Shown: piece after piece, positions 15,136 through 53,845 of the stretch | Position numbering within the stretch: position 1 is the stretch's first letter | How the letters are laid out: every line of letters begins with the position of its first letter | From: Syntrophales bacterium | GTDB lineage: Bacteria; Desulfobacterota; Syntrophia; Syntrophales; PHBD01 | Length of the DNA stretch: 64,000 nt | Direction: 5' to 3' | Assembly (NCBI GenBank): GCA_963668175.1 | Contig: OY764159.1 | Location: 1,056,001 to 1,120,000, forward strand | Translations under genes and position numbers: made by a program | Notes under the pieces: generated by a model | What the model was told of the DNA's origin: nothing | Seen by the model: the letters and a program-made list of their open reading frames with translations, nothing else | Databases searched by the model: none

Positions 15136-16080
15136 ATGGAGCACAGTCACAATCACCACCACCATCATCACCATCCGGGCAATTCGTGGGATAAACGCCT
15201 GATGGGAACCATGGTGCTCAATCTGATTATTCCGGCGGTTCAGATATACGGCGGCATTGTCTCGGGCAGCATGGCGCTGATCAGCGACGCCCTGCACAAC
15301 CTAAGCGACTTCACGTCGGTCGCCATCAGTTATACGGCCTTACGCCTTGGACGGCACAAGCCGACCGTGCAGCAGACGTTCGGCTACAAACGCGTCGAAG
15401 TGTTTGCCGCGCTGCTCAATGTGGCGCTGCTCTATGGTGTCGGTTTCTTTATCGCCCTGGAAAACTGGCAGCGCATTCATCATCCCCGCCCCATCGACGG
15501 CCATATCGTCATTATCATGGCCGCTTTCGCTTTTCTGGCCAACATGCTGTCGACCTTGATGCTCCGTTCCGGGGCCAAGGAGAATATGAATATCCGATCG
15601 GCCTTTCTGCATATGCTGACCGATACCCTGATGTCGCTGATTGTCGCGATATTGGGAATCATCTGGCTTTACAAGCCCTGGTACTGGCTCGATCCCGTCG
15701 CTTCATGGCTTATCGTGGCGTTGATTATCTACAGCGGTTGGGGTATTCTGAAAAGCACCCTTCTGATTCTTATGAATGCAACCCCGGAGCACATCGATAT
15801 CGAGGATATCAGGCGGTCCGTGGAAGGAATCGACGGGGTGGAAGAAATCCACCATCTCCACGTCTGGAATGTTTCGGCGGAGAGCGTGGCCCTGGCGGCC
15901 CATGTCATCGTTCCGGACCAGATGCTGAGCAACATCGACAGCCTGTCGGAGACGATACGGCGCCTTCTGCACGAGAAATTCCGGATCGATCACCCCATCC
16001 TGCAATTTGAGACGCGAAGGCACGACGACACGAGTCTCTTGTGCCGTATGGAAGCCGGCGGTACGATGGATTGCCGCTGA
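15136..16080 (+). CDS. Cation diffusion facilitator (CzcD/ZitB-like) metal efflux transporter
   Basis: His-rich N-terminus, SDALHNLSD, TFGYKR.E, AFLHMLTD, HHLHVW. Confidence 0.92.
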   Translation: MEHSHNHHHHHHHPGNSWDKRLMGTMVLNLIIPAVQIYGGIVSGSMALISDALHNLSDFTSVAISYTALRLGRHKPTVQQTFGYKRVEVFAALLNVALLYGVGFFIALENWQRIHHPRPIDGHIVIIMAAFAFLANMLSTLMLRSGAKENMNIRSAFLHMLTDTLMSLIVAILGIIWLYKPWYWLDPVASWLIVALIIYSGWGILKSTLLILMNATPEHIDIEDIRRSVEGIDGVEEIHHLHVWNVSAESVALAAHVIVPDQMLSNIDSLSETIRRLLHEKFRIDHPILQFETRRHDDTSLLCRMEAGGTMDCR

Positions 16081-26591: not shown

Positions 26592-27602
26592 GTGGAAAAT
26601 ATCGATAAAAAGCTGCAGGAAGAGGTCCGGAGACTGCTGGACGAAAAGAAGGTCGACGTCGTTGTCGGATATGAGCAGGGCACACTGCCGCTGACGGCCA
26701 CGCCCTGTTTTATAACCGCTTCTGCGGATGCGGATAAACTGGTCTGGAATGCCTTCTGCACACAAAATCTTGCCAAGTACGTTCACGATCTCATCTCACA
26801 GCACCGGGACTCTCAGAAGAGAGTGAAACCTGAGGACAGGAAAAAGAAGGTCGTCGGCGTCGTCGCCCGCGGCTGTGCGACACGCTCCATCGTCATCCAT
26901 CTTCAGGAGAAGCAGTACGACCGGGAAGATGTGGTCATCATCGGCGTTCCCTGTACGGGTTATGTCGACAAGACCAAGGTTGCCGCCAAACTGAACGGCG
27001 AAGAGGTCCTCGGCGGATCGCTGGAAGGCGACGAGCTCTCCGTCAAGACGGCCGGCGGCGACAAGAAAATGTCCTTGAAAGAAGTTCTGGCGAACAACTG
27101 CCTCACCTGCCGTTTCAACAACCCCGTTATCTCCGACATGATGATCGGCGCCGCCGCCCCGGCAATGGACGCCGACCGCGAGTATGCGGACGTGCAGGCC
27201 ATGGAGAAGCTTTCCGTCGAGGAGCGCTGGGCCTACTTCAAGAAGGAGATGGCCAAATGCATGCGCTGTTACGCCTGCCGCCAGGCCTGTCCTTCCTGCT
27301 ACTGCAAAGTCTGCTTCCAGGAACAAAGCCAGCCGCAATGGGTCGGTGTCGGCGAAGACCAGACGGATACGCAGGTCTTCCAAATGATGAGAATATTTCA
27401 CATGGTCGGACGCTGCGTCGATTGCGGGTCCTGCAACGATGTCTGCCCGATGGGCGTCAACCTGAGAATGTTCCTGAAGAAACTCGACAAGGACGCCTTC
27501 ATAATGTTCGACAGCCGGACCGGCGTTTCTCTGGACGAGCCGCCGCCGCTTTCCACGTACAAGGAGCACGAGAAAAGCGAGGACTTTATTTTTAATCCCT
27601 GA
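26592..27602 (+). CDS. FlxC/FdhB-like iron-sulfur protein
   Basis: CMRCYACRQACPSCYC, H..GRCVDCGSCNDVCP; FrhB/FdhB-like N-terminus. Confidence 0.8.
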   Translation: MENIDKKLQEEVRRLLDEKKVDVVVGYEQGTLPLTATPCFITASADADKLVWNAFCTQNLAKYVHDLISQHRDSQKRVKPEDRKKKVVGVVARGCATRSIVIHLQEKQYDREDVVIIGVPCTGYVDKTKVAAKLNGEEVLGGSLEGDELSVKTAGGDKKMSLKEVLANNCLTCRFNNPVISDMMIGAAAPAMDADREYADVQAMEKLSVEERWAYFKKEMAKCMRCYACRQACPSCYCKVCFQEQSQPQWVGVGEDQTDTQVFQMMRIFHMVGRCVDCGSCNDVCPMGVNLRMFLKKLDKDAFIMFDSRTGVSLDEPPPLSTYKEHEKSEDFIFNP

Positions 27603-27697
27603 TTTACAGAGGGTTTCGCAACTGCGAATAACATATTAGTTCAATCTTACGGCAGCCGGCCGCCAGCGAAAAACGGCCGCAGCCGAATGGAGACCGC

Positions 27698-28225
27698 ATG
27701 AATACCTTTCTTGAAGAAGTAAACAGTCAAATCAACGGCGTTCCCATCCAGCGATGCTACCATTGCCGGAAATGTACGGCCGGATGCCCCCTGGCCTCCG
27801 TGATGGAGTACAACCCCAACAAGGTCATCAAGATGATCCAGATGGGCAAGCGCAGCGAAGTCCTGAACAGTTCGACCATCTGGCTTTGCGCCTCCTGTGA
27901 GACCTGCATTACCCGCTGCCCGAACCAGGTGGATATCGCCCGCATGATGGATGTCCTCCGGGAGATGGCCATTGCTTCGGGCGTTGGGGCCAAAGAGAAG
28001 AACATCCTCAAGTTCCACGAATCGTTCCTCTCCAACATCAAGCTGGGCGGCCGCATCAACGAACCGACCATGATGGTCCAGTATAAGCTCAAATCGGGAG
28101 ATCTCTTTTCCGATATGGGGATGGGCATCAACATGTTCCTCAAGGGCAAGCTGGCCCTCATCTCCCCTAAGACGAAAAATATCGACGCCGTAAGAAAGAT
28201 TTTTGAAAAAACGAAGCATGCGTGA
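27698..28225 (+). CDS. hdrC: Heterodisulfide reductase subunit C-like
   Basis: CYHCRKCTAGCP...IWLCASCETCITRCP. Confidence 0.9.
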   Translation: MNTFLEEVNSQINGVPIQRCYHCRKCTAGCPLASVMEYNPNKVIKMIQMGKRSEVLNSSTIWLCASCETCITRCPNQVDIARMMDVLREMAIASGVGAKEKNILKFHESFLSNIKLGGRINEPTMMVQYKLKSGDLFSDMGMGINMFLKGKLALISPKTKNIDAVRKIFEKTKHA

Positions 28226-28248
28226 AGCGTAAACGAAGGAGGCCATAG

Positions 28249-29100
28249 TTGAAAGTTCAATATTATCCAGGATGTTCCCTTCATGGTACGGCCAAGGAAT
28301 ACGACCAGTCGATGAAGGCGGTCAGTCGCGCCCTGGGGATCGAGTTACAGGAAGTCGAGGATTGGTCTTGTTGCGGCGCCACATCGGCCCATGCCACGAA
28401 TTACAAGCTGTCAGTCGCGCTGCCGGCACGCAACCTGATGCTGGCGGAAAAGGCCGCCGCGAAGGATGTCATGGTTCCCTGCGCCGCCTGCTTTAATCGC
28501 TTCAAGTCCGCCCAGCACCATCTCGCTCACGATCAGGCGTTGAAAGCGGAGGTGGAGGGCATCGTCGGCGGCAAGTACAAGGGCGAACTGTCCATCAAGA
28601 ACCCGATCGATATCATTTACGGCAATATCGGCCTCGACGCCCTCGCGGCCAAGGTCGTGAAGCCGCTCGCGGGGATCAAGGCCGCTTCCTATTACGGCTG
28701 CCTGCTCCTGCGTCCGCCGGAAGTATGCGAATTCGACGACTACGAGAATCCCATGATGCTCGACGGGATTCTGAAGGCGATAGGCGCGGAAGCCCGGCCC
28801 TGGTCCTACAAGACCGACTGCTGCGGCGGAAGCCTTACAATCAGCAAGACATCCATCGTGGTCTCCATGGTGGACAAACTGATGACCATGGCCCGGGAAG
28901 CGGGCGCAAACTGTATTGTGACGGCGTGTCCCGTTTGTATGGCCAATCTGGATATGAGGGCAAGCAGCCACCTCAAGCTTCCGGTCTTCTATTTTACGGA
29001 GCTTCTCGCACTCGCTATGGGATTGCAGGGGCCCGCGGACTGGTTCAAGCTGCACAACGTCGATCCGACGCCGCTCGTCGGCAGCCTGCAGCTTATGTAA
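28249..29100 (+). CDS. hdrB: Heterodisulfide reductase subunit B-like
   Basis: YYPGC, WSCCGA, PCAAC, YYGC, CCGG, TACPVC (CCG domains). Confidence 0.92.
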   Translation: MKVQYYPGCSLHGTAKEYDQSMKAVSRALGIELQEVEDWSCCGATSAHATNYKLSVALPARNLMLAEKAAAKDVMVPCAACFNRFKSAQHHLAHDQALKAEVEGIVGGKYKGELSIKNPIDIIYGNIGLDALAAKVVKPLAGIKAASYYGCLLLRPPEVCEFDDYENPMMLDGILKAIGAEARPWSYKTDCCGGSLTISKTSIVVSMVDKLMTMAREAGANCIVTACPVCMANLDMRASSHLKLPVFYFTELLALAMGLQGPADWFKLHNVDPTPLVGSLQLM

Positions 29101-29175
29101 TATGACCGAGGATGAAAGGCGCTGCCGGTACAGGCAGACCATGATCCACAATAACCTATCAGAATAAGGCAGACT

Positions 29176-30198
29176 ATGGAAAAGAGGTTAATCAAGAAAG
29201 ACGCGCTTACCGGGCTGGTGAAGAAAATTGCCGAAAGGATGCCTGTCTATGCGCCGGTCAAGGTCGAGGATAATATTCTGTTCAAGGCGCTGGAAAAGGG
29301 AGACGAGCCCCTGGCCGCCTTCGCCAACAGCAAGAACGCGCCGAAGAATTTCTTCTTCCCCCATACGGAAGTCATGATGCGTTATACCCGGACCGCCAAG
29401 GGTTCGGAGTTTTCCGGCGGTGCGACGGAGGCCGAAGAGAGGGTGCTGTTCGGCGTCCGGCCCTGCGATGCCCGGAGCTTCATTCTTCTGGACAAGCTTT
29501 TCGATCAGGAGAAGTACAGGGACACGTTCTATATCGACAAGAGAAACAAGACGACGATCGTTGCGATCGCCTGCGCCCATCCCCCGTATTCGACGTGCTT
29601 CTGTACGTCCGTCGGCGGCAATCCGACCTCTGCGGATGGTGCGGACGTACTCCTGACAGATCTGGGCGACCAGTATCTCGTAGAGTTTATAACGCCGAAG
29701 GGCGAAAAATATATCAAGGATTTCGGGGACGCCAAGGCCGACGAAGCTGCGGAGAAGAAAAAGGCCGCCATCGCCGCCCAGGCGGAAGGTGAGATCAAGT
29801 CCCGCATTCCGGCCAAGGAGATCAAGCCGATCCTCGATGCCAATTTTGAGCATCCCTTCTGGGGGACCATCCACCAGAGGTGCCTGGCCTGCGGTACATG
29901 CACCTACCTGTGTCCGACATGCCACTGCTTCGACATCAGCGATGAAGTCAAGCATGAGGACGGCAGGCGCCTTCGCAATTGGGACTCCTGCATGTACCCG
30001 CTCTTTACGCTGGAAACGTCGGGGCACAACCCCCGGCCCACCCAGAAAGAGCGGTGGCGCCAGCGGGCGATGCACAAATTCCGTTATTTTGTGGATAATT
30101 TTGAGGCCATTGCATGCGTAGGCTGCGGAAGATGCGTCATGTACTGCCCTGTCAATATTGATATCAGAAAAATCGTCGAGGATATTTCGAAACTATAG
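29176..30198 (+). CDS. flxB: FlxB (AsrA/HydB-like) 4Fe-4S protein
   Basis: GVRPCD, CFCTS, CLACGTCTYLCPTCHCF, WDSC, CVGCGRCVMYCP. Confidence 0.8.
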   Translation: MEKRLIKKDALTGLVKKIAERMPVYAPVKVEDNILFKALEKGDEPLAAFANSKNAPKNFFFPHTEVMMRYTRTAKGSEFSGGATEAEERVLFGVRPCDARSFILLDKLFDQEKYRDTFYIDKRNKTTIVAIACAHPPYSTCFCTSVGGNPTSADGADVLLTDLGDQYLVEFITPKGEKYIKDFGDAKADEAAEKKKAAIAAQAEGEIKSRIPAKEIKPILDANFEHPFWGTIHQRCLACGTCTYLCPTCHCFDISDEVKHEDGRRLRNWDSCMYPLFTLETSGHNPRPTQKERWRQRAMHKFRYFVDNFEAIACVGCGRCVMYCPVNIDIRKIVEDISKL

Positions 30199-30212
30199 CG
30201 TGGGAGAGTGTC

Positions 30213-31052
30213 ATGCAGAATCCATATGTACCCATTCCCGTTGAGGTAGCCAAAATCATTACGGAGGTCGACAGTAAGGACATCAAGACCTTCCGTTTTG
30301 CCTTCGTCAACAAGGAAGATGAAGAGAAGTTTAAATACATTCCCGGACAGTTCGGGGAGCTTTCCATATTCGGCAAGGGCGAGTCGCCGATCGGCATAGC
30401 CTCCTCCCCGACGCAGAAGGGCTACGTTGAGTTTACCGTCCAGCGGGCGGGCGTCGTGACGACGGCCCTGCACAGCATGGAAGAAGGAACGCGGATGGGT
30501 ATCCGGGGACCGTTGGGCAATTCCTGGCCCATCGAGTTTCTGGAAGGCAAGAATATCGTGATCGTCGGCGGCGGTTTTGCCTTCACGACGCTGCGCTCCC
30601 TGATCAACTATATGATCCACGAGAGCAACCGTTCCCGCTTCGGCAAGATCACCGTCGTGTACGGTGCCAGGACCCCCGGACTCCTGCTCTACAAGGACGA
30701 ATTGATCGAATGGGAAAAACGGGGCGATATCAATCTGAACGTTACGGTGGACAAAGGGGACGCGACCTGGAAAGGCCGGGAAGGGTTTGTGCCGGCCGTT
30801 TGCAAGGAAGTGGCACCCAGTTCGGACAATGCGGTGGCCCTGATCTGCGGTCCGCCCATTATGATCCGCTTCACCCTGCCCGTCTTTTTCGAGCTGAACT
30901 TCTCGAAGGATAATATCATAACGTCCTTGGAAATGAGGATGAAATGTGGTATTGGTAAGTGCGGACGTTGCAACGTGGGGAGCAAATACGTCTGCAAGGA
31001 CGGGCCGGTATTTTCACTTGCTGAGCTTGATCAACTGACCAAAGAATACTGA
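30213..31052 (+). CDS. flxA: FlxA (AsrB/PyrK-like) FAD/NAD-binding [2Fe-2S] protein
   Basis: PGQF, RGPLGN, GGG, CGPPIM, MKCGIGKCGRC...VCKDGPVF. Confidence 0.83.
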   Translation: MQNPYVPIPVEVAKIITEVDSKDIKTFRFAFVNKEDEEKFKYIPGQFGELSIFGKGESPIGIASSPTQKGYVEFTVQRAGVVTTALHSMEEGTRMGIRGPLGNSWPIEFLEGKNIVIVGGGFAFTTLRSLINYMIHESNRSRFGKITVVYGARTPGLLLYKDELIEWEKRGDINLNVTVDKGDATWKGREGFVPAVCKEVAPSSDNAVALICGPPIMIRFTLPVFFELNFSKDNIITSLEMRMKCGIGKCGRCNVGSKYVCKDGPVFSLAELDQLTKEY

Positions 31053-31092
31053 TTCACTAAAAACCGTCAAACCGCGATAAAAAAGCTGGAGG

Positions 31093-31127
31093 AAGGGGAG
31101 CCGCCAAGTGGGCTCCCTTGTTTTTTT
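31093..31127 (+). terminator. Intrinsic terminator between flxA and nfnA
   Basis: AAGGGGAGCC-GCCAAGTG-GGCTCCCTT-G-T7. Confidence 0.65.
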
Positions 31128-31159
31128 ACACCCCCCTCTGCCAAAAGGAGATGGAAGCT

Positions 31160-31996
31160 TTGAACAAAATCATAGAGAAACAGAATATTTCGGAGAGTGT
31201 CGTCCGGATGGTTCTCGAAGTTCCGGACGTCGCCCGGAAAAGGAAGGCCGGCCAATTCATTATTCTGAAGCTCGACGAGAAGGGCGAGAGGATACCGCTC
31301 ACCATCGTCGATTCGGATGCGGAAAAAGGCACGATCACGATCATCTTTCAAATCGTCGGCAAGACGACGGCCGTCCTGGGGTCATTGAATCCGGGAGACA
31401 GCCTTCAGGACGTCCAGGGACCCCTGGGGAACCCGACGGAAATTGAAAACTTCGGGCACGTCGTCTGCGTCGGCGGCGGCGTCGGCGTCGGCGTCGTCTA
31501 TCCCCTGGCGGTGGCCCTGAAAAAAGCCGGCAACAAGGTGACGTCCATCATCGGCTCGCGAACAAAGGAGCTGATCATCCTGGAAGACGAAATGAGCAAG
31601 GTCAGCGACCGCCTTCTCGTCGCCACCGACGACGGTTCCTACGGTTTCCACGGGTTCGTGAGCGCCGTTCTCCAGAATCTCATAGACGCCGGGGAGAAGA
31701 TCGATCACGTCTTCGCCATCGGTCCCGTACCGATGATGAAAGTGATCAGCAACGTCACGAGGCCTTACGGCATCAAGACGACGGTCAGCCTGAATTCCAT
31801 CATGGTTGACGCCACGGGGATGTGCGGCGCCTGCCGGGTTTCCGTGGGGGGTGAAACGAAATTCACCTGTGTTGACGGCCCGGAGTTCGACGGTCACAAG
31901 GTCGATTTTGATTTATTATCGAGCCGCCTGAAGATGTACTGTGATGTTGAAAAACAGGCGTTTGAACTGCATAGGTGCGGATGCGATGGAAACTGA
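31160..31996 (+). CDS. nfnA: NADH-dependent reduced ferredoxin:NADP oxidoreductase small subunit (NfnA/SudB)
   Basis: GQFII...GERIPLTI, GPLGNP, IGPVPMM, MVDATGMCGACRV...CVDGPEFD (Asp-ligated [2Fe-2S]); start TTG 31160 or ATG 31151. Confidence 0.9.
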   Translation: MNKIIEKQNISESVVRMVLEVPDVARKRKAGQFIILKLDEKGERIPLTIVDSDAEKGTITIIFQIVGKTTAVLGSLNPGDSLQDVQGPLGNPTEIENFGHVVCVGGGVGVGVVYPLAVALKKAGNKVTSIIGSRTKELIILEDEMSKVSDRLLVATDDGSYGFHGFVSAVLQNLIDAGEKIDHVFAIGPVPMMKVISNVTRPYGIKTTVSLNSIMVDATGMCGACRVSVGGETKFTCVDGPEFDGHKVDFDLLSSRLKMYCDVEKQAFELHRCGCDGN

Positions 31997-33398
31997 AAAG
32001 AAAGATAAGAAGGAAAAAGTTCCCCGGCACAAGATGCCGGAACAGAAACCCTCGGAAAGAATCCGTAATTTCGGCGAAGTGCCGACCGGATATCCGGCGG
32101 AAACGGCCATTGCCGAGGCCAAGCGCTGCATCCAGTGCAAGAAGCCCGGCTGCATTACCGGTTGTCCCGTGGATGTGGACATACCCGGATTCATCAAATT
32201 GATCGCCGAAGGCCAGTTTATCGAAGCGGCCCTGAAGCTCAAGGAGACCAACGGCCTTCCCGCCGTCTGCGGCCGGGTCTGCCCGCAGGAGGACCAGTGC
32301 GAGAAGCTCTGCATCCTGGGCAAGAAGGGCGAGCCGGTGGCGATCGGTAGGCTGGAGCGTTTTGCCGCCGATCTGGAGAGGGAATCGGGCCATATTTCCA
32401 TACCTCCGATCCCGGCCCCGAACGGTAAGAAGGTGGCCGTTGTCGGCGCCGGACCTTCGGGCCTGACCATCGCCGGCGATCTCGTCAAACTCGGCTACGA
32501 AGTGACGATATTCGAGGCACTTCACCAGGCCGGGGGCGTCCTCGTTTACGGTATCCCCGAATTCAGGCTCCCCAAGAAGATCGTTCAGGCCGAGGTCGAT
32601 TATCTGCAGAAAATGGGCGTCAAGATCGTCCTCAATGCTGTTATCGGCCGCATCAAAACGGTGGACGAACTCTTCGCCGAGGGCTTCAACGCCGTCTATC
32701 TGGGTGTCGGCGCCGGCGCCCCCGTCTTCATGGGCATTCCGGGCGAAAACCTGAGTGGCATCTATTCGGCCAACGAATATCTCACAAGGTCCAACCTGAT
32801 GAAGGCCTATCTCTTTCCCGAGTACGATACGCCCATCGCCCGGGGCAAGAACGTCGCCGTCATCGGCGGCGGCAATGTGGCCATGGATTCGGTCCGGACG
32901 GCCCTGAGGCTGGGGGCGGACAACGCCTACATCATTTACCGCCGTACGGAGGTGGAGATGCCTGCCCGTATCGAGGAGGTCCACCATGCCAAGGAAGAAG
33001 GTGTCCAGTTCAAGCTGCTCACCAATCCGATTGAATACATCGGCGATGAAAACGGCTGGGTCAAAGGGATCAAGTGCCTCCAGATGGAGCTGGGGGAACC
33101 CGATGAATCGGGCCGCAGGAGGCCGATAGCCGTCAAGGGCTCCGAATTCGTTATCGATGTCGATACGGTCGTGGTCGCCGTAGGCACCATGGCAAACCCC
33201 ATCGTTCCCGCCACGACACCGGGGCTCACAACGAACAAATGGGGCTATATCGTGACGAAGGACGAGAATGGAGAGACGACCAGGCAAGGGGTCTATGCCG
33301 GCGGCGATATCGTAACCGGATCGGCGACGGTGATCCTGGCCATGGGTGCGGGCCGCAAGGCGGCGCACGCCATCCACGAGTATCTCTCGCGGAAATAG
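31986..33398 (+). CDS. nfnB: NfnB/SudA large bifurcating subunit (often annotated as homotetrameric glutamate synthase)
   Basis: CIQCKKPGCITGCP, CGRVCPQEDQCE, LERF, GIPEFRLP, GGGNVAMD, YRR, GSATVILAMGAG; overlaps the end of nfnA. Confidence 0.9.
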   Translation: METEKKDKKEKVPRHKMPEQKPSERIRNFGEVPTGYPAETAIAEAKRCIQCKKPGCITGCPVDVDIPGFIKLIAEGQFIEAALKLKETNGLPAVCGRVCPQEDQCEKLCILGKKGEPVAIGRLERFAADLERESGHISIPPIPAPNGKKVAVVGAGPSGLTIAGDLVKLGYEVTIFEALHQAGGVLVYGIPEFRLPKKIVQAEVDYLQKMGVKIVLNAVIGRIKTVDELFAEGFNAVYLGVGAGAPVFMGIPGENLSGIYSANEYLTRSNLMKAYLFPEYDTPIARGKNVAVIGGGNVAMDSVRTALRLGADNAYIIYRRTEVEMPARIEEVHHAKEEGVQFKLLTNPIEYIGDENGWVKGIKCLQMELGEPDESGRRRPIAVKGSEFVIDVDTVVVAVGTMANPIVPATTPGLTTNKWGYIVTKDENGETTRQGVYAGGDIVTGSATVILAMGAGRKAAHAIHEYLSRK

Positions 33399-33562: not shown

Positions 33563-34246
33563 TTAATGATGCTCTTCCATGGCGCCGGCGATATACATCA
33601 TCGCCAGGAGCATGAAGACGAGGGTCTGGATGACCGACGTGAAGATCATGAGGGCCACGACGGGCAGCGGCACCATCAGCGGCACCAGGAAAAGAACGAC
33701 GGCCAGAACGAGATCCTCGCCGCGGATGTTACCGAAAAGCCGGAACGAAAGCGAAAGCGGCCGGGAAAAATGGCTGACGATTTCAATGGGCAGCATCAGG
33801 GGGATCAAATACGGGTTCGGTCCCAGGAACTGTTTGAAATAGGCCAGTCCCTGCACCTTTACGCCGACGACATGGGTCAGGATGAAGACGCAAAGGGCCA
33901 TGGAGACCGTTGTATTCAGATTGGCCGTCGGCGACTCGAAACCGGGAATGAGGCCGATGAGGTTCGAGGTGAGGATGTAGAACCCCAGGGTGGCGATGAG
34001 CGGGAAAAAACGCTTCCCTTCATGGCCCATCGTATTGTCGAGAAGCGTGTGGAAGGAGTCGACAAAGACCTCCATCACGTTCTGGAACGCGCCGGGCAGT
34101 ATGGACAAGCCGCGCGTGGCCAGAAAACCGAACAGGGCCAAAAGCGCCATGACGAACCATGTGTACGCGACGATCGTCATGTCGATGTGATAAGCCTCAT
34201 GAATATGATTGAAAGCCTTCAAATGAAAGAATAACAAGGGTTCCAT
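33563..34246 (-). CDS. atpB: F0 ATP synthase subunit a
   Basis: [39 protein letters not shown]. Confidence 0.96.
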
Positions 34247-34252
34247 GGGTAA

Positions 34253-34645
34253 CTACGCCTCCTCCTCAACACTGTTTTTTTTTGACAGTACCATGACGGC
34301 CGTAATAACGATGTTAATCACCACCACTGACAGACCGGCGATCAACCCTATGATATCGACGACATCCCTGGATACTATAAAGTACAAGACAACAGCGGTG
34401 ACCCCGAGCCGGATGTAATACTTGAACATGATCCGGCCCTTCACGCTACCCGACAGGTTGCTGAAAACCTTGCGGAGATCCCGATGAAGCCAGTGGAAAT
34501 TAACGATGCTGATGAGGCTTCCCAGAACGACCCCGGTTAACCGGGTTGGCATGAATATCCAACTTAGCAAGGCCAAAATCGCCAGAATAACCCAGTTTGT
34601 CACTTCAAGTCTTGTTTGGAGCGGGTCTTTTTCGATGGGGTTCAC
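34253..34645 (-). CDS. atpI: ATP synthase protein I
   Basis: Four hydrophobic segments, G..ISIVNF.WL, directly upstream of atpB. Confidence 0.8.
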   Translation of the reverse strand: MNPIEKDPLQTRLEVTNWVILAILALLSWIFMPTRLTGVVLGSLISIVNFHWLHRDLRKVFSNLSGSVKGRIMFKYYIRLGVTAVVLYFIVSRDVVDIIGLIAGLSVVVINIVITAVMVLSKKNSVEEEA

Positions 34646-34895
34646 TTCTTATACTCTTGATGACCTCTGTTTCGTCACGAAAGTATCGCTTGACCAGCCC
34701 ATACAAGTTTCTGAAACCGATGAGAACTCCCAGGAGCATAAAGAGGAAGGCAAAGCGATGGCCGCCGCCCAGCTTTTCGTCCAGGTAATTCCCCAGAAAG
34801 AGCCCGCCGAAGATCATCAGAACCATGCCGATGCCGATGCTGCTTGCATACGCCATCTGCACAAGGGAATCCCTGGAGCCCTTATCCAATTTCAT
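34605..34895 (-). CDS. AtpZ/AtpI-family small membrane protein
   Basis: Two TM segments, G..LG.YLD motif; AGGAGG SD; first gene of the F0 cluster. Confidence 0.8.
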   Translation of the reverse strand: MKLDKGSRDSLVQMAYASSIGIGMVLMIFGGLFLGNYLDEKLGGGHRFAFLFMLLGVLIGFRNLYGLVKRYFRDETEVIKSIRSEPHRKRPAPNKT

Positions 34896-35080
34896 GCTGG
34901 CCTCCTATCATGAAGCAACCCCGAAGTCAATAAAAAACATTGTCGCCGAATGCAGTCTTTTCCTTGCAGGTCTTGACTTTCGTCTTGCCGGGAGCGAATT
35001 TGTATGGTACATTTTAAACACGAAATAACCCCTGGTTATGCGGCTTTATAGGATACTCTATTCGGGGAGGGGAACGAAGA

Positions 35081-35380
35081 ATGACTTTGATTATCGGGGG
35101 CGCCGTTGCGACGGTCATCGGGCTCGTGGGACTCGTTTTGTGGCACGCGGACTTCCTGGTCATCCTTAAGGGCGGTATACCCGTCGGCCTGTTGCTTACG
35201 GGAATCCTGGCCATGTACGTCGGCTTCGACGAGATTCAGGAAAAATTCAGCGACGAACGGCGAAAACAGGACGAGAAACTCGAAAAAGCCCAGGAAGAAA
35301 TAGAAATAGTCAAAGCCAAGGCGGAGCAATACCGGGAAGAAATAGACCGCCTGAAAAAGGAAGTCGGTAAAGCCGATTGA
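35081..35380 (+). CDS. Small two-TM membrane protein with C-terminal coiled coil; N-terminal half resembles magnetosome protein MamI
   Basis: IGLVGLVLW...LKGGIPVGLLLTGILA..G pattern; GGAGG SD; charged heptad tail. Confidence 0.7.
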   Translation: MTLIIGGAVATVIGLVGLVLWHADFLVILKGGIPVGLLLTGILAMYVGFDEIQEKFSDERRKQDEKLEKAQEEIEIVKAKAEQYREEIDRLKKEVGKAD

Positions 35381-51592: not shown

Positions 51593-53845
51593 TCAGAACC
51601 CCGTCCATAGGGCCAGATGATAGACCGTAAGGCCCATGACGAAGGAAACGACCAGCATCAAGACGATGGAGGCCGCAAACCAGAGGCGGTCGGCCATCTC
51701 CTGCTTCATCGCAGTCAGTGTCGCCGCGCAGGGTACGAAGATCATCATGACCACGAGGAAGGAAAGCGCCGAAGCGTGGCTGATGGCATGGGGCAGGACC
51801 TTGACCAGACCTTCCTGACCCGTTCCGTAAAGCACGCCCAGGGTTGCCACGGCATTCTCCTTGGCGACAATGCTTGTCATCAGGGCGGTAATCATCTTCC
51901 AATCCAGTCCAAGGGGGCTGCCGATAGGTTCCAGGAGGCGTCCCGCCTGGGCCAGGATGCTGTCTTCGATGGCCCCTCCGGGCAGATGGGCGAGGAGCCA
52001 GATCACGACCGACACGCCCAGGATGACTGTGCCCGCCCTTTTCACAAAGGCGATCGTTCTTGCCCAGACGACGAGGCCGATCGTTCGGTAATTGGGCTTC
52101 TGGTAGAGCGGCAGTTCCATGATGAAGGGCATGGGTTCCCCTTTCAGGAAAACCCTGCTGACGATGACGCCGGTGATGCCGAGAAGCAGGATGTTGGCCG
52201 TAAGCAAGCCCCACGATACGTACATCGCGAGGTTCCCGAAAATAGCGGCGGTGATGAAGGCCAGGACGGCCAGCCTGGCTGTGCAGGGGATGAAGGGGGA
52301 AAGGAAGATCGTGAGCAACTTCTCTTTCTTCGATTCGACGATCCGGGCTCCCAGGATGGAGGGCACATTGCATCCGAACCCGAGGCACATGGGGATGAAG
52401 CTTTTGCCGTGAAGTCCGATGAGGTGCATGAAGCGGTCCATGACGAAGGCCGCCCGCGCCATGTAGCCCACATCTTCCAGAACAGCCATGAAAGCGAAGA
52501 AGATGAGGAGGATGGGGATAAAAGTGAGGACCGAACCGGCCCCGCCGATAACGCCGTTGATCAAGAGTCCCCTGAACCAGGCCGGCATGGAGCCCATGAC
52601 GGTCGTAAGCCCTTCGGCCAGGACGCTCACCGCCCACTCCAGGCCTTTCTGAAGGGGAAATCCGATCTTGTACGTGGCGGCGAAGACGAGTCCGAAGACG
52701 CCGAACAGAACGGGGATACCCAGTATCGGCCTTGTCAGGATATGATCGATCCGGTCCGTCATAACGACTTCGCCCATTTTGAAACGGGAAACGGAAGCCC
52801 TCGTGATGGCCTCGATCCAGTCGTAGCGCCCGCCGACGACGGCATGCAGGGCGTCTTCGTGTTTGATCAGGATGTCCCTGACCTCCCGCCAGACATCGAC
52901 AGGCACTAAGCCCTCGATAATCGAGGATATTTCCGGGTCTCCCTCCATGAGCTTCGTCGCCAGCCAGCGCGCCGTGCCGGGCAGTTGGAGGTGAGGTTTG
53001 ATCAACGTCATCAGGTCCTCAAAGACGCCGCTGTGGTCCTTGGAAATATCCGGAAGATTCGGGTAATAGTCTTCCTCTCCTTTGTCCAGAGCGATGATCC
53101 GCGCCACAAGCTCGCGAACGCCCCGGTTCTTGGTGGCGACCATGGGAACGACGGGAATGCCGAGGGATTTTTCGAGGGCCTTGGCGTCCACATGGATGCC
53201 CTGGGCCTCGGCGACATCGAGCATGTTAAGGGCGACTATGACGGGCGGTCCGAGCAGGAGCATTTCCGCCAGCAGGTAGAGACTTCTTTCCAGGGCCGCG
53301 GCATTGACCAGAAGAACGATGACGTCGGGATTGGCAGTGGCGATGAAATCCCTCGTGATCCGCTCCTCTTCCGAAAAAGAGGTCAGGCTGTACGTTCCGG
53401 GGAGATCGGTGATCCTCATCTCGGTCCCGTTGGACAGGTGGTGGCCCTCTTTCTTCTCCACGGTCTTCCCCGGCCAGTTGCCGACATGCTGGGAAAGGCC
53501 CGTCAGGATGTTAAAAATGGTGGACTTGCCGACGTTGGGCTGACCGGTGAGGGCGACGTATATTATCCTTCCGGCCGGCGGTTCTTCGGGCAGGCACTCC
53601 GGATGGGGTTGGAGGCGCTGCACGATGATCTTGGCGGCTTCTCCGGCCCCCAGGGCGAATCGGGTCTCGCCGCTTTGGAGAATGATCGGTCCGCTGCCCG
53701 CCTTTCGGGCGATCTTGACCCTGGTGCCGTGGGCCACTCCCATAGCGGCCAGTTTGGTGATAAGGGCCTTGCCGGCCGATATATAAAGGACGATTCCTTC
53801 TTCCTGCTCCGAAAGCAAATCGAGAGACAGAGGTTCTTCAGTCAT
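51593..53845 (-). CDS. feoB: Ferrous iron transporter FeoB with fused N-terminal FeoA domain
   Basis: FeoA-like first ~80 aa (L..MG...G..V...GP...RFALG); GQPNVGKS, VGNWPG.TVE, DLPG, NMLD; GFGCNVP gates. Confidence 0.93.
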   Translation of the reverse strand: MTEEPLSLDLLSEQEEGIVLYISAGKALITKLAAMGVAHGTRVKIARKAGSGPIILQSGETRFALGAGEAAKIIVQRLQPHPECLPEEPPAGRIIYVALTGQPNVGKSTIFNILTGLSQHVGNWPGKTVEKKEGHHLSNGTEMRITDLPGTYSLTSFSEEERITRDFIATANPDVIVLLVNAAALERSLYLLAEMLLLGPPVIVALNMLDVAEAQGIHVDAKALEKSLGIPVVPMVATKNRGVRELVARIIALDKGEEDYYPNLPDISKDHSGVFEDLMTLIKPHLQLPGTARWLATKLMEGDPEISSIIEGLVPVDVWREVRDILIKHEDALHAVVGGRYDWIEAITRASVSRFKMGEVVMTDRIDHILTRPILGIPVLFGVFGLVFAATYKIGFPLQKGLEWAVSVLAEGLTTVMGSMPAWFRGLLINGVIGGAGSVLTFIPILLIFFAFMAVLEDVGYMARAAFVMDRFMHLIGLHGKSFIPMCLGFGCNVPSILGARIVESKKEKLLTIFLSPFIPCTARLAVLAFITAAIFGNLAMYVSWGLLTANILLLGITGVIVSRVFLKGEPMPFIMELPLYQKPNYRTIGLVVWARTIAFVKRAGTVILGVSVVIWLLAHLPGGAIEDSILAQAGRLLEPIGSPLGLDWKMITALMTSIVAKENAVATLGVLYGTGQEGLVKVLPHAISHASALSFLVVMMIFVPCAATLTAMKQEMADRLWFAASIVLMLVVSFVMGLTVYHLALWTGF

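Follow-up and report, generated by a model that had tools for sequence, protein, structure and literature searches.

In a 64,000-nucleotide stretch of DNA from a member of the Syntrophales (the window), a 99-aa membrane protein is encoded that is homologous to the magnetosome protein MamI and whose gene stands alone, i.e., apart from any magnetosome cluster, a reading to which a probability of about 95% can be given. MamI is stated to be confined to magnetotactic bacteria, at least in the available parts of PMC4902198 and PMC3905215, and this restriction is solidly contradicted by the homology and the distribution reported below.

The open reading frame and its translation, as quoted in a preliminary description of this DNA, proved to be real, and the charged coiled coil of some 50 aa mentioned there corresponds to a 50-aa tail with 13 K/R, 17 D/E and a hydrophobic heptad, namely L67-A70-I74-V77-A81-Y84-I88-L91-V95 (Table 1). 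The purine-rich GGGGAGGGG is found 5' of the ATG, with GGAGG-type motifs at the same position in 12/12 relatives displayed, and a converging GyrI-like gene follows downstream. A promoter and terminator scan around the gene remained at chance level.

Table 1. Features of the stand-alone MamI-family locus in the window.
Feature	Position	Strand	Basis or remark
Stand-alone MamI-family gene (P0001), 99 aa	35081..35380	+	Profile, shuffle, hhalign and dN/dS evidence
MamI-homologous membrane domain, residues 1-55	35081..35245	+	Conservation, AlphaFold2, motif counts
Charged tail, leucine-zipper-like heptad at its end (residues 67-98)	35228..35377	+	Predicted cytoplasmic, the membrane side being inferred
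Probable ribosome binding site GGGGAGGGG	35064..35072	+	Sequence; GGAGG-type motifs in relatives
atpZ-type/atpI/atpB, divergent neighbours in the window's own family only; outside the system	33563..34895	-	

A MamI-family protein encoded on its own

Against the NCBIfam model of MamI (NF040963), the protein obtains 41.4 bits (E 9.6e-11), residues 1-67 aligning on positions 1-67 of the 69 of the profile. This is about half the curated cut-off of 80 bits, which is a strict one since the cluster-encoded MamI P0208 likewise falls under it with 76.5 bits. The Pfam family PF26391, for which the name given by the Atlas is MamI, is precomputed on the protein as well as on 28/30 of its first matches; that Pfam and the Atlas label these proteins as MamI family is thus already known. 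At the level of homology, membership of PF26391 is borne out by a profile match that is significant across the two-helix domain and, in the predicted model, by a pair of hydrophobic helices that are joined by a short turn and bear the conserved Gly/Pro pattern. Profile-profile comparison by hhalign of 30 close relatives with 24 deltaproteobacterial MamI-type proteins gave a probability of 95.9% (E 5.7e-9) over 52 gap-free columns. With HMMs built solely from MamI-type groups, i.e., 46 deltaproteobacterial or 10 Omnitrophota-labelled proteins, the real sequence scored 19.0 and 41.7 bits, respectively, and 0/1999-2000 shuffles, made over the whole N-terminus or within segments, reached its score in each of four runs (shuffle maxima 11-16 bits). 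The protein is also the best match to the MamI-type HMMs among the 59,676 six-frame segments of its genome and, reciprocally, the family profile recovers the annotated MamI P0208. Identity of the stand-alone protein to cluster MamI is 28-34%, with G7, G14, P34 and G41 invariant across 44 diverse rows, cluster MamI among them; other families match weakly, the best being DUF3185 (19/44 members, E>=0.0008). A chance likeness between two hydrophobic hairpins, which the NF040963 score at half the cut-off and the low identity would favour, is ruled out by the shuffle and six-frame tests together with hhalign, is further contradicted by the reciprocal recovery of P0208 and the weakness of the matches to other families, and can practically be discounted, so that the likeness to MamI first suspected in the preliminary description reaches beyond hydrophobic composition.

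The genome of the window is a single contig and 100% complete. Scanned as a whole, it holds no NF040963 match besides this gene and no MamK, the best match to the MamK model being MreB; in tblastn, 12 of the 23 cluster proteins of the magnetotactic genome G318 are without match, and the remaining queries match scattered generic paralogues, namely CDF, TPR, LemA and FeoB proteins (22-30% identity) and HtrA domains (up to 48%). No cluster is found by any of these scans, in line with the initial claim that the gene lies outside any magnetosome island and without other mam genes. Regarding what defines a MamI equivalog, the gene is not in a cluster with mamA, B, E, K, M, P and Q, and its product, as compared with the deltaproteobacterial and Omnitrophota-labelled groups only, is not a short protein having an acidic loop and no long tail. 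Elsewhere in the window, a CDF transporter gene (15220-15816, + strand) and a FeoB-type gene (about 51650-53551, - strand) lie 16-20 kb from the gene; at 24-26% identity to cluster proteins, the two appear to be generic.

Occurrence and selective constraint

With the family profile, the gene is detected in 115/121 Syntrophales genomes, almost always in single copy, and in 95/98 of the high-quality ones, while across the Desulfobacterota it occurs in 122/401 genomes, close to all-or-none by family (120/401 when the MamI model is used instead). At E<=0.001, the MamI model matches 0/14 control genomes. As the gene goes undetected in 279/401 genomes of the phylum, it is not generally essential. 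The median dN/dS is 0.11 (192 pairs, 56 Syntrophales sequences) and the family is under purifying selection. That the gene behaves as a housekeeping gene, as already put forward, is supported by its near-universal single copy in the order, by this ratio, and by carriers mostly devoid of magnetosome markers.

Concerning the latter, 115/122 carriers have neither mamK nor a mamB/M pair, as judged with a rule that counts pairs only, each member scoring at least 233 bits and aligning from profile position 1, and that may miss divergent clusters. Pairs were required because the MamB model alone cannot separate magnetotactic genomes, matching 108/401 genomes at 1e-45 with generic CDFs up to 267 bits. 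A MamI-family match alone is therefore no marker of magnetotaxis, and the view, given in the preliminary description, of MamI as specific to magnetotactic bacteria does not hold. The other seven carriers have a MamK match over cut-off (G007, G008, G050, G294 and G318), a full-length MamB/M-type pair (G008, G050, G087, G121 and G318), or both. Separately, MamK-type actins occur in 11 genomes without MamI-family match (G019, G026, G061, G098, G131, G163, G220, G253, G278, G281 and G329), mostly above the curated cut-off and as close pairs in three genomes.

Searched against 50% representatives, the first 55 residues return 117 matches, most of which are below the NF040963 cut-off yet match the MamI model; one of the 117, P0034 (903 aa, repetitive), was discarded as spurious. 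In the source annotations, members are hypothetical or membrane proteins, apart from one UniRef entry named "Magnetosome protein." Cultured carriers, going by the protein names of the sources, include Desulfarculus baarsii (P0371), Desulfococcus (P0391) and Syntrophus (P0364), in all of which the protein is called hypothetical. Beyond the Desulfobacterota, relatives bear the labels Ratteibacteria and Omnitrophica; in the 4 loci inspected of 6 found, the gene of the Ratteibacteria type follows an acetyltransferase gene (purN-rimI-type) and precedes a fabG-type gene. A plasmid search gave no match.

Relationship to the mamI genes of magnetosome clusters

The window gene is a paralogue of mamI and not a displaced mamI, since five magnetotactic genomes carry both forms. 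Indeed, G318, G008, G050, G087 and G121 possess a short cluster mamI beside mamA together with a separate, tail-bearing stand-alone copy elsewhere; the same five also hold a tandem double-domain copy. A second, more divergent stand-alone paralogue occurs in three magnetotactic genomes (G087, G008 and G121; L119-L121). The stand-alone copy of G318 has plsB as its divergent neighbour, an arrangement it shares with 9 genomes devoid of magnetosome markers, and groups in the tree with the copy of one of those plsB-linked genomes (99/77). Among 86 stand-alone loci inspected, none contains a magnetosome cluster gene.

The tree is unrooted and comprises 82 rows, i.e., those kept of 493 domain sequences after redundancy filtering, and 56 columns, the sampling being without alphaproteobacterial or Nitrospirota MamI. 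Support for the branch that divides cluster-type from stand-alone copies is 84/75. On the stand-alone side, sequences from magnetotactic genomes are interspersed with those from the remaining genomes, and the grouping follows the lineage of the host, several of the groups having starred support. The signal is thin, with 12/78 inner branches starred, and two alternative topologies are not rejected by the AU test: one unites all rows from the Desulfobacterota, as a duplication inside this phylum would (p 0.41), and the other joins the G318 stand-alone copy to deltaproteobacterial MamI (p 0.24); paralogy thus rests on coexistence and synteny.

As for the direction of descent, the stand-alone family may be the pre-magnetosome ancestor of MamI, a reading to which we give somewhat less than even odds. 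As part of this same tentative reading, the ancestor is pictured as an ancient membrane-organising hairpin of the Desulfobacterota, Omnitrophota and Ratteibacteria; a duplicate of it would have been recruited into magnetosome clusters, where it shed the zipper-bearing tail and gained and fixed an acidic loop facing the mineral. If so, the hairpin by itself would restore membrane invagination to a strain lacking mamI, and MamI would no longer be an orphan among the core magnetosome genes.

Conversely, the stand-alone gene may be a domesticated relic, an ancestral magnetosome cluster having been lost and mamI alone retained with a tail gained for a new cellular job. The unrooted tree accommodates both arrangements, the known range (Desulfobacterota, Omnitrophica- and Ratteibacteria-named proteins) overlaps phyla with magnetotactic members, and redundant mamI copies exist in clusters, here as in the accessible part of PMC4287615. 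This descent is nonetheless unlikely: in magnetotactic genomes, which retain the two forms, each has a locus of its own that is typical of the lineage; the 86 stand-alone loci are free of other cluster genes; the stand-alone copies follow the lineage of the host, several groups having starred support; and other core Mam proteins belong to widespread families such as LemA and CDF (PMC4902198, in the part available).

Domain organisation and putative role

AlphaFold2 models the 99-aa protein as helices 2-20 and 22-98 (pLDDT 95.6, pTM 0.56). The N-terminal domain consists of a Gly-rich helix (2-20), a break at W21 and a helix with G31-x-x-P34 and G41-x-x-A44-x-x-x-G48, small residues being spread along both helices (G7, G14, G17, G31, P34, G41, A44 and G48). 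Glycine patterns of this kind mediate helix packing. A YxGx[DE] motif is present in 73/80 stand-alone copies vs 0/56 MamI-type proteins, the 80 copies, like the 80 loci considered below, counting one G007 locus twice. The zipper pattern of the tail is present in 49/80 stand-alone copies vs 0/56 MamI-type proteins and missing in the other 31/80, and the tail is net-negative in 74/80. In place of motif and zipper, the 56 MamI-type proteins bear acidic loops. Some stand-alone copies bear extra C-terminal parts (P0081, P0100, P0127, P0066; L122:5035-5751), which we take to be a Cys-rich Ada-type zinc-binding segment and possibly a winged helix; a second copy in G195 has a long C-terminal extension.

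Structural searches returned little: weak coiled-coil or helix matches only in the PDB sequence search (best E 0.02), no match by Foldseek, and generic coiled coils only by VIA-align (Z<=7.1, rmsd 5-11). In the PDB sequence search, Protein LRC (9lts, E 0.04) was judged a chance match.

On this anatomy, we infer a topology, an oligomeric state and a scaffold role for the stand-alone protein. That it acts as a small inner-membrane scaffold is a reading we hold at even odds. In this prediction, the two helices rich in glycine pack against other copies of the protein or against partner membrane proteins, and the acidic coiled-coil tail, on the side of the cytoplasm, would likely keep the assembly from coming apart.

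Alternatively, the protein itself may bend membranes, the short hairpin giving shape, in the manner of a wedge, to invaginations or vesicles of these anaerobes. According to the available part of PMC3905215, AMB-1 requires MamI for invagination, and the short loop of the protein is read as membrane-bending; the Gly/Pro pattern is moreover common to the stand-alone protein and MamI. Such an activity appears improbable in view of the MSR-1 mamI deletion, which still forms normal vesicles (PMC4902198, in the portion available), and of the weak amphipathicity of the segment after the turn (moment about 0.2). Besides, gene presence does not track LemA/MamQ-family genes: in a sample of one genome per family (73/401), LemA is found in 25/36 carriers vs 29/37 non-carriers. 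In this sample, LapA is also without association with the gene (34/36 carriers vs 32/37 non-carriers).

Genomic context

The stand-alone gene is mostly flanked by opposite-strand genes, and the context therefore gives no function. Across the Syntrophales (80 loci, 74 with enough upstream DNA), the divergent neighbour is hisI in 67, atpZ in 5 and neither in 2; in 86 further loci, neighbours include plsB (10), namZ (9), ndk (8), and polA, dnaJ, argF and hisG (4 each). No functional neighbour conserved across the Syntrophales and these further loci was found.

In the window, the upstream genes are, as first described, ATP synthase F0 genes, namely atpZ-type, atpI and atpB. The idea drawn from them, of a factor that assembles or organises ATP synthase and shares a divergent promoter, and thereby its regulation, with atpZIB, is favoured by the divergence from atpZ in the window and in 5/5 same-family genomes fetched. 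It is nevertheless rejected as highly improbable, the neighbour being confined to the window's own family: atpZ lies upstream in only 5/74 Syntrophales loci against 67 for hisI, and atpB is a neighbour in only 5 genomes of that family and in 0/81 other loci tested, i.e., the linkage to atp genes is not conserved. On the downstream side, TRAP genes are present here as in other Syntrophales (43/80 loci), from which it follows that the upstream side was swapped by rearrangement, hisI-hisG of the window genome now being at 140 kb and both atpE genes elsewhere. As such, the atp-adjacent arrangement is a family-level rearrangement.

The atpZ-type/atpI/atpB genes at 33563-34895 (- strand) are without atpE after them, and separate atpE genes are located at G000:C1 384485 and 838398; with these two elsewhere, the genome has a split F0 operon. 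Further upstream, at 26592-33398 (+ strand), lie iron-sulfur/flavoprotein redox genes, presumably Hdr/Flx-type from their appearance, then an NfnAB-like pair.

Implications for MamI and the magnetosome core

A stand-alone paralogue in about 30% of sampled Desulfobacterota genomes overturns the magnetotactic-only view of MamI. A full-text literature search found no description of MamI homologues outside magnetotactic bacteria, though subscription papers or supplements may hold one; the available portion of the PMC5109826 supplement, which covers selected genes only, contains nothing on the stand-alone family. This family provides an outgroup against which the origin of the core magnetosome genes can be traced as well as a comparative handle on MamI function, and bears on the argument, made for the Nitrospirota in the part of PMC9376291 available, that non-magnetotactic genomes hold no cluster remnants.

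In the G318 cluster, a 102-aa membrane protein encoded just before the MamM-type CDF gene (L113:12133-12438) shows a weak LapA-domain match (E 0.004); NCBIfam gave it no name and it is taken to be MamL by size and place. As a lead, MamL, the other small protein regarded as magnetotactic-only, may also have a housekeeping origin.

Comparison with known systems

With MamI (NF040963; PF26391; here P0208, NCBI name "Magnetosome protein MamI"), the window protein shares a gap-free two-helix domain of 52-55 residues and the pattern G7, G14, G31, P34, G41 and G48; the helices predicted in P0208, 2-20 and 25-48, have similar boundaries. Unlike MamI, it is encoded outside a cluster and possesses the YxGx[DE] motif and an acidic zipper tail of 40-50 aa, and it is devoid of the D-E-Y-Y-Y-V-x-D loop that is invariant in deltaproteobacterial MamI. 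One paper reportedly deals with a magnetite-binding loop of MamI. For MamI itself, a role as interaction hub or curvature element is proposed, and the protein, in the absence of other magnetosome proteins, is distributed across the cytoplasmic membrane (available parts of PMC3905215 and PMC4902198); the role is disputed, as membranes still form in the MSR-1 deletion (PMC4902198, same part).

The closest MamI-type group by profile is the Omnitrophota-labelled one (P0190-P0194, P0202 and P0211; 41.7 bits vs 19.0 bits for the deltaproteobacterial group), the members of which are 56-64 aa long, with a WWDNFGDF loop and the tail absent. The tandem MamI-2 of deltaproteobacterial clusters has the same domain as the window protein, but as two fused copies and inside the cluster; such genes were observed at L124:8674-9078, L125:6993-7334, L025:824-1228 and L113:1151-1510. 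Finally, the AtpI/AtpZ-type accessory proteins (PF03899, PF09527) are likewise small membrane proteins and are encoded next to the gene in the window genome, but share with its product neither a sequence match nor a conserved linkage.
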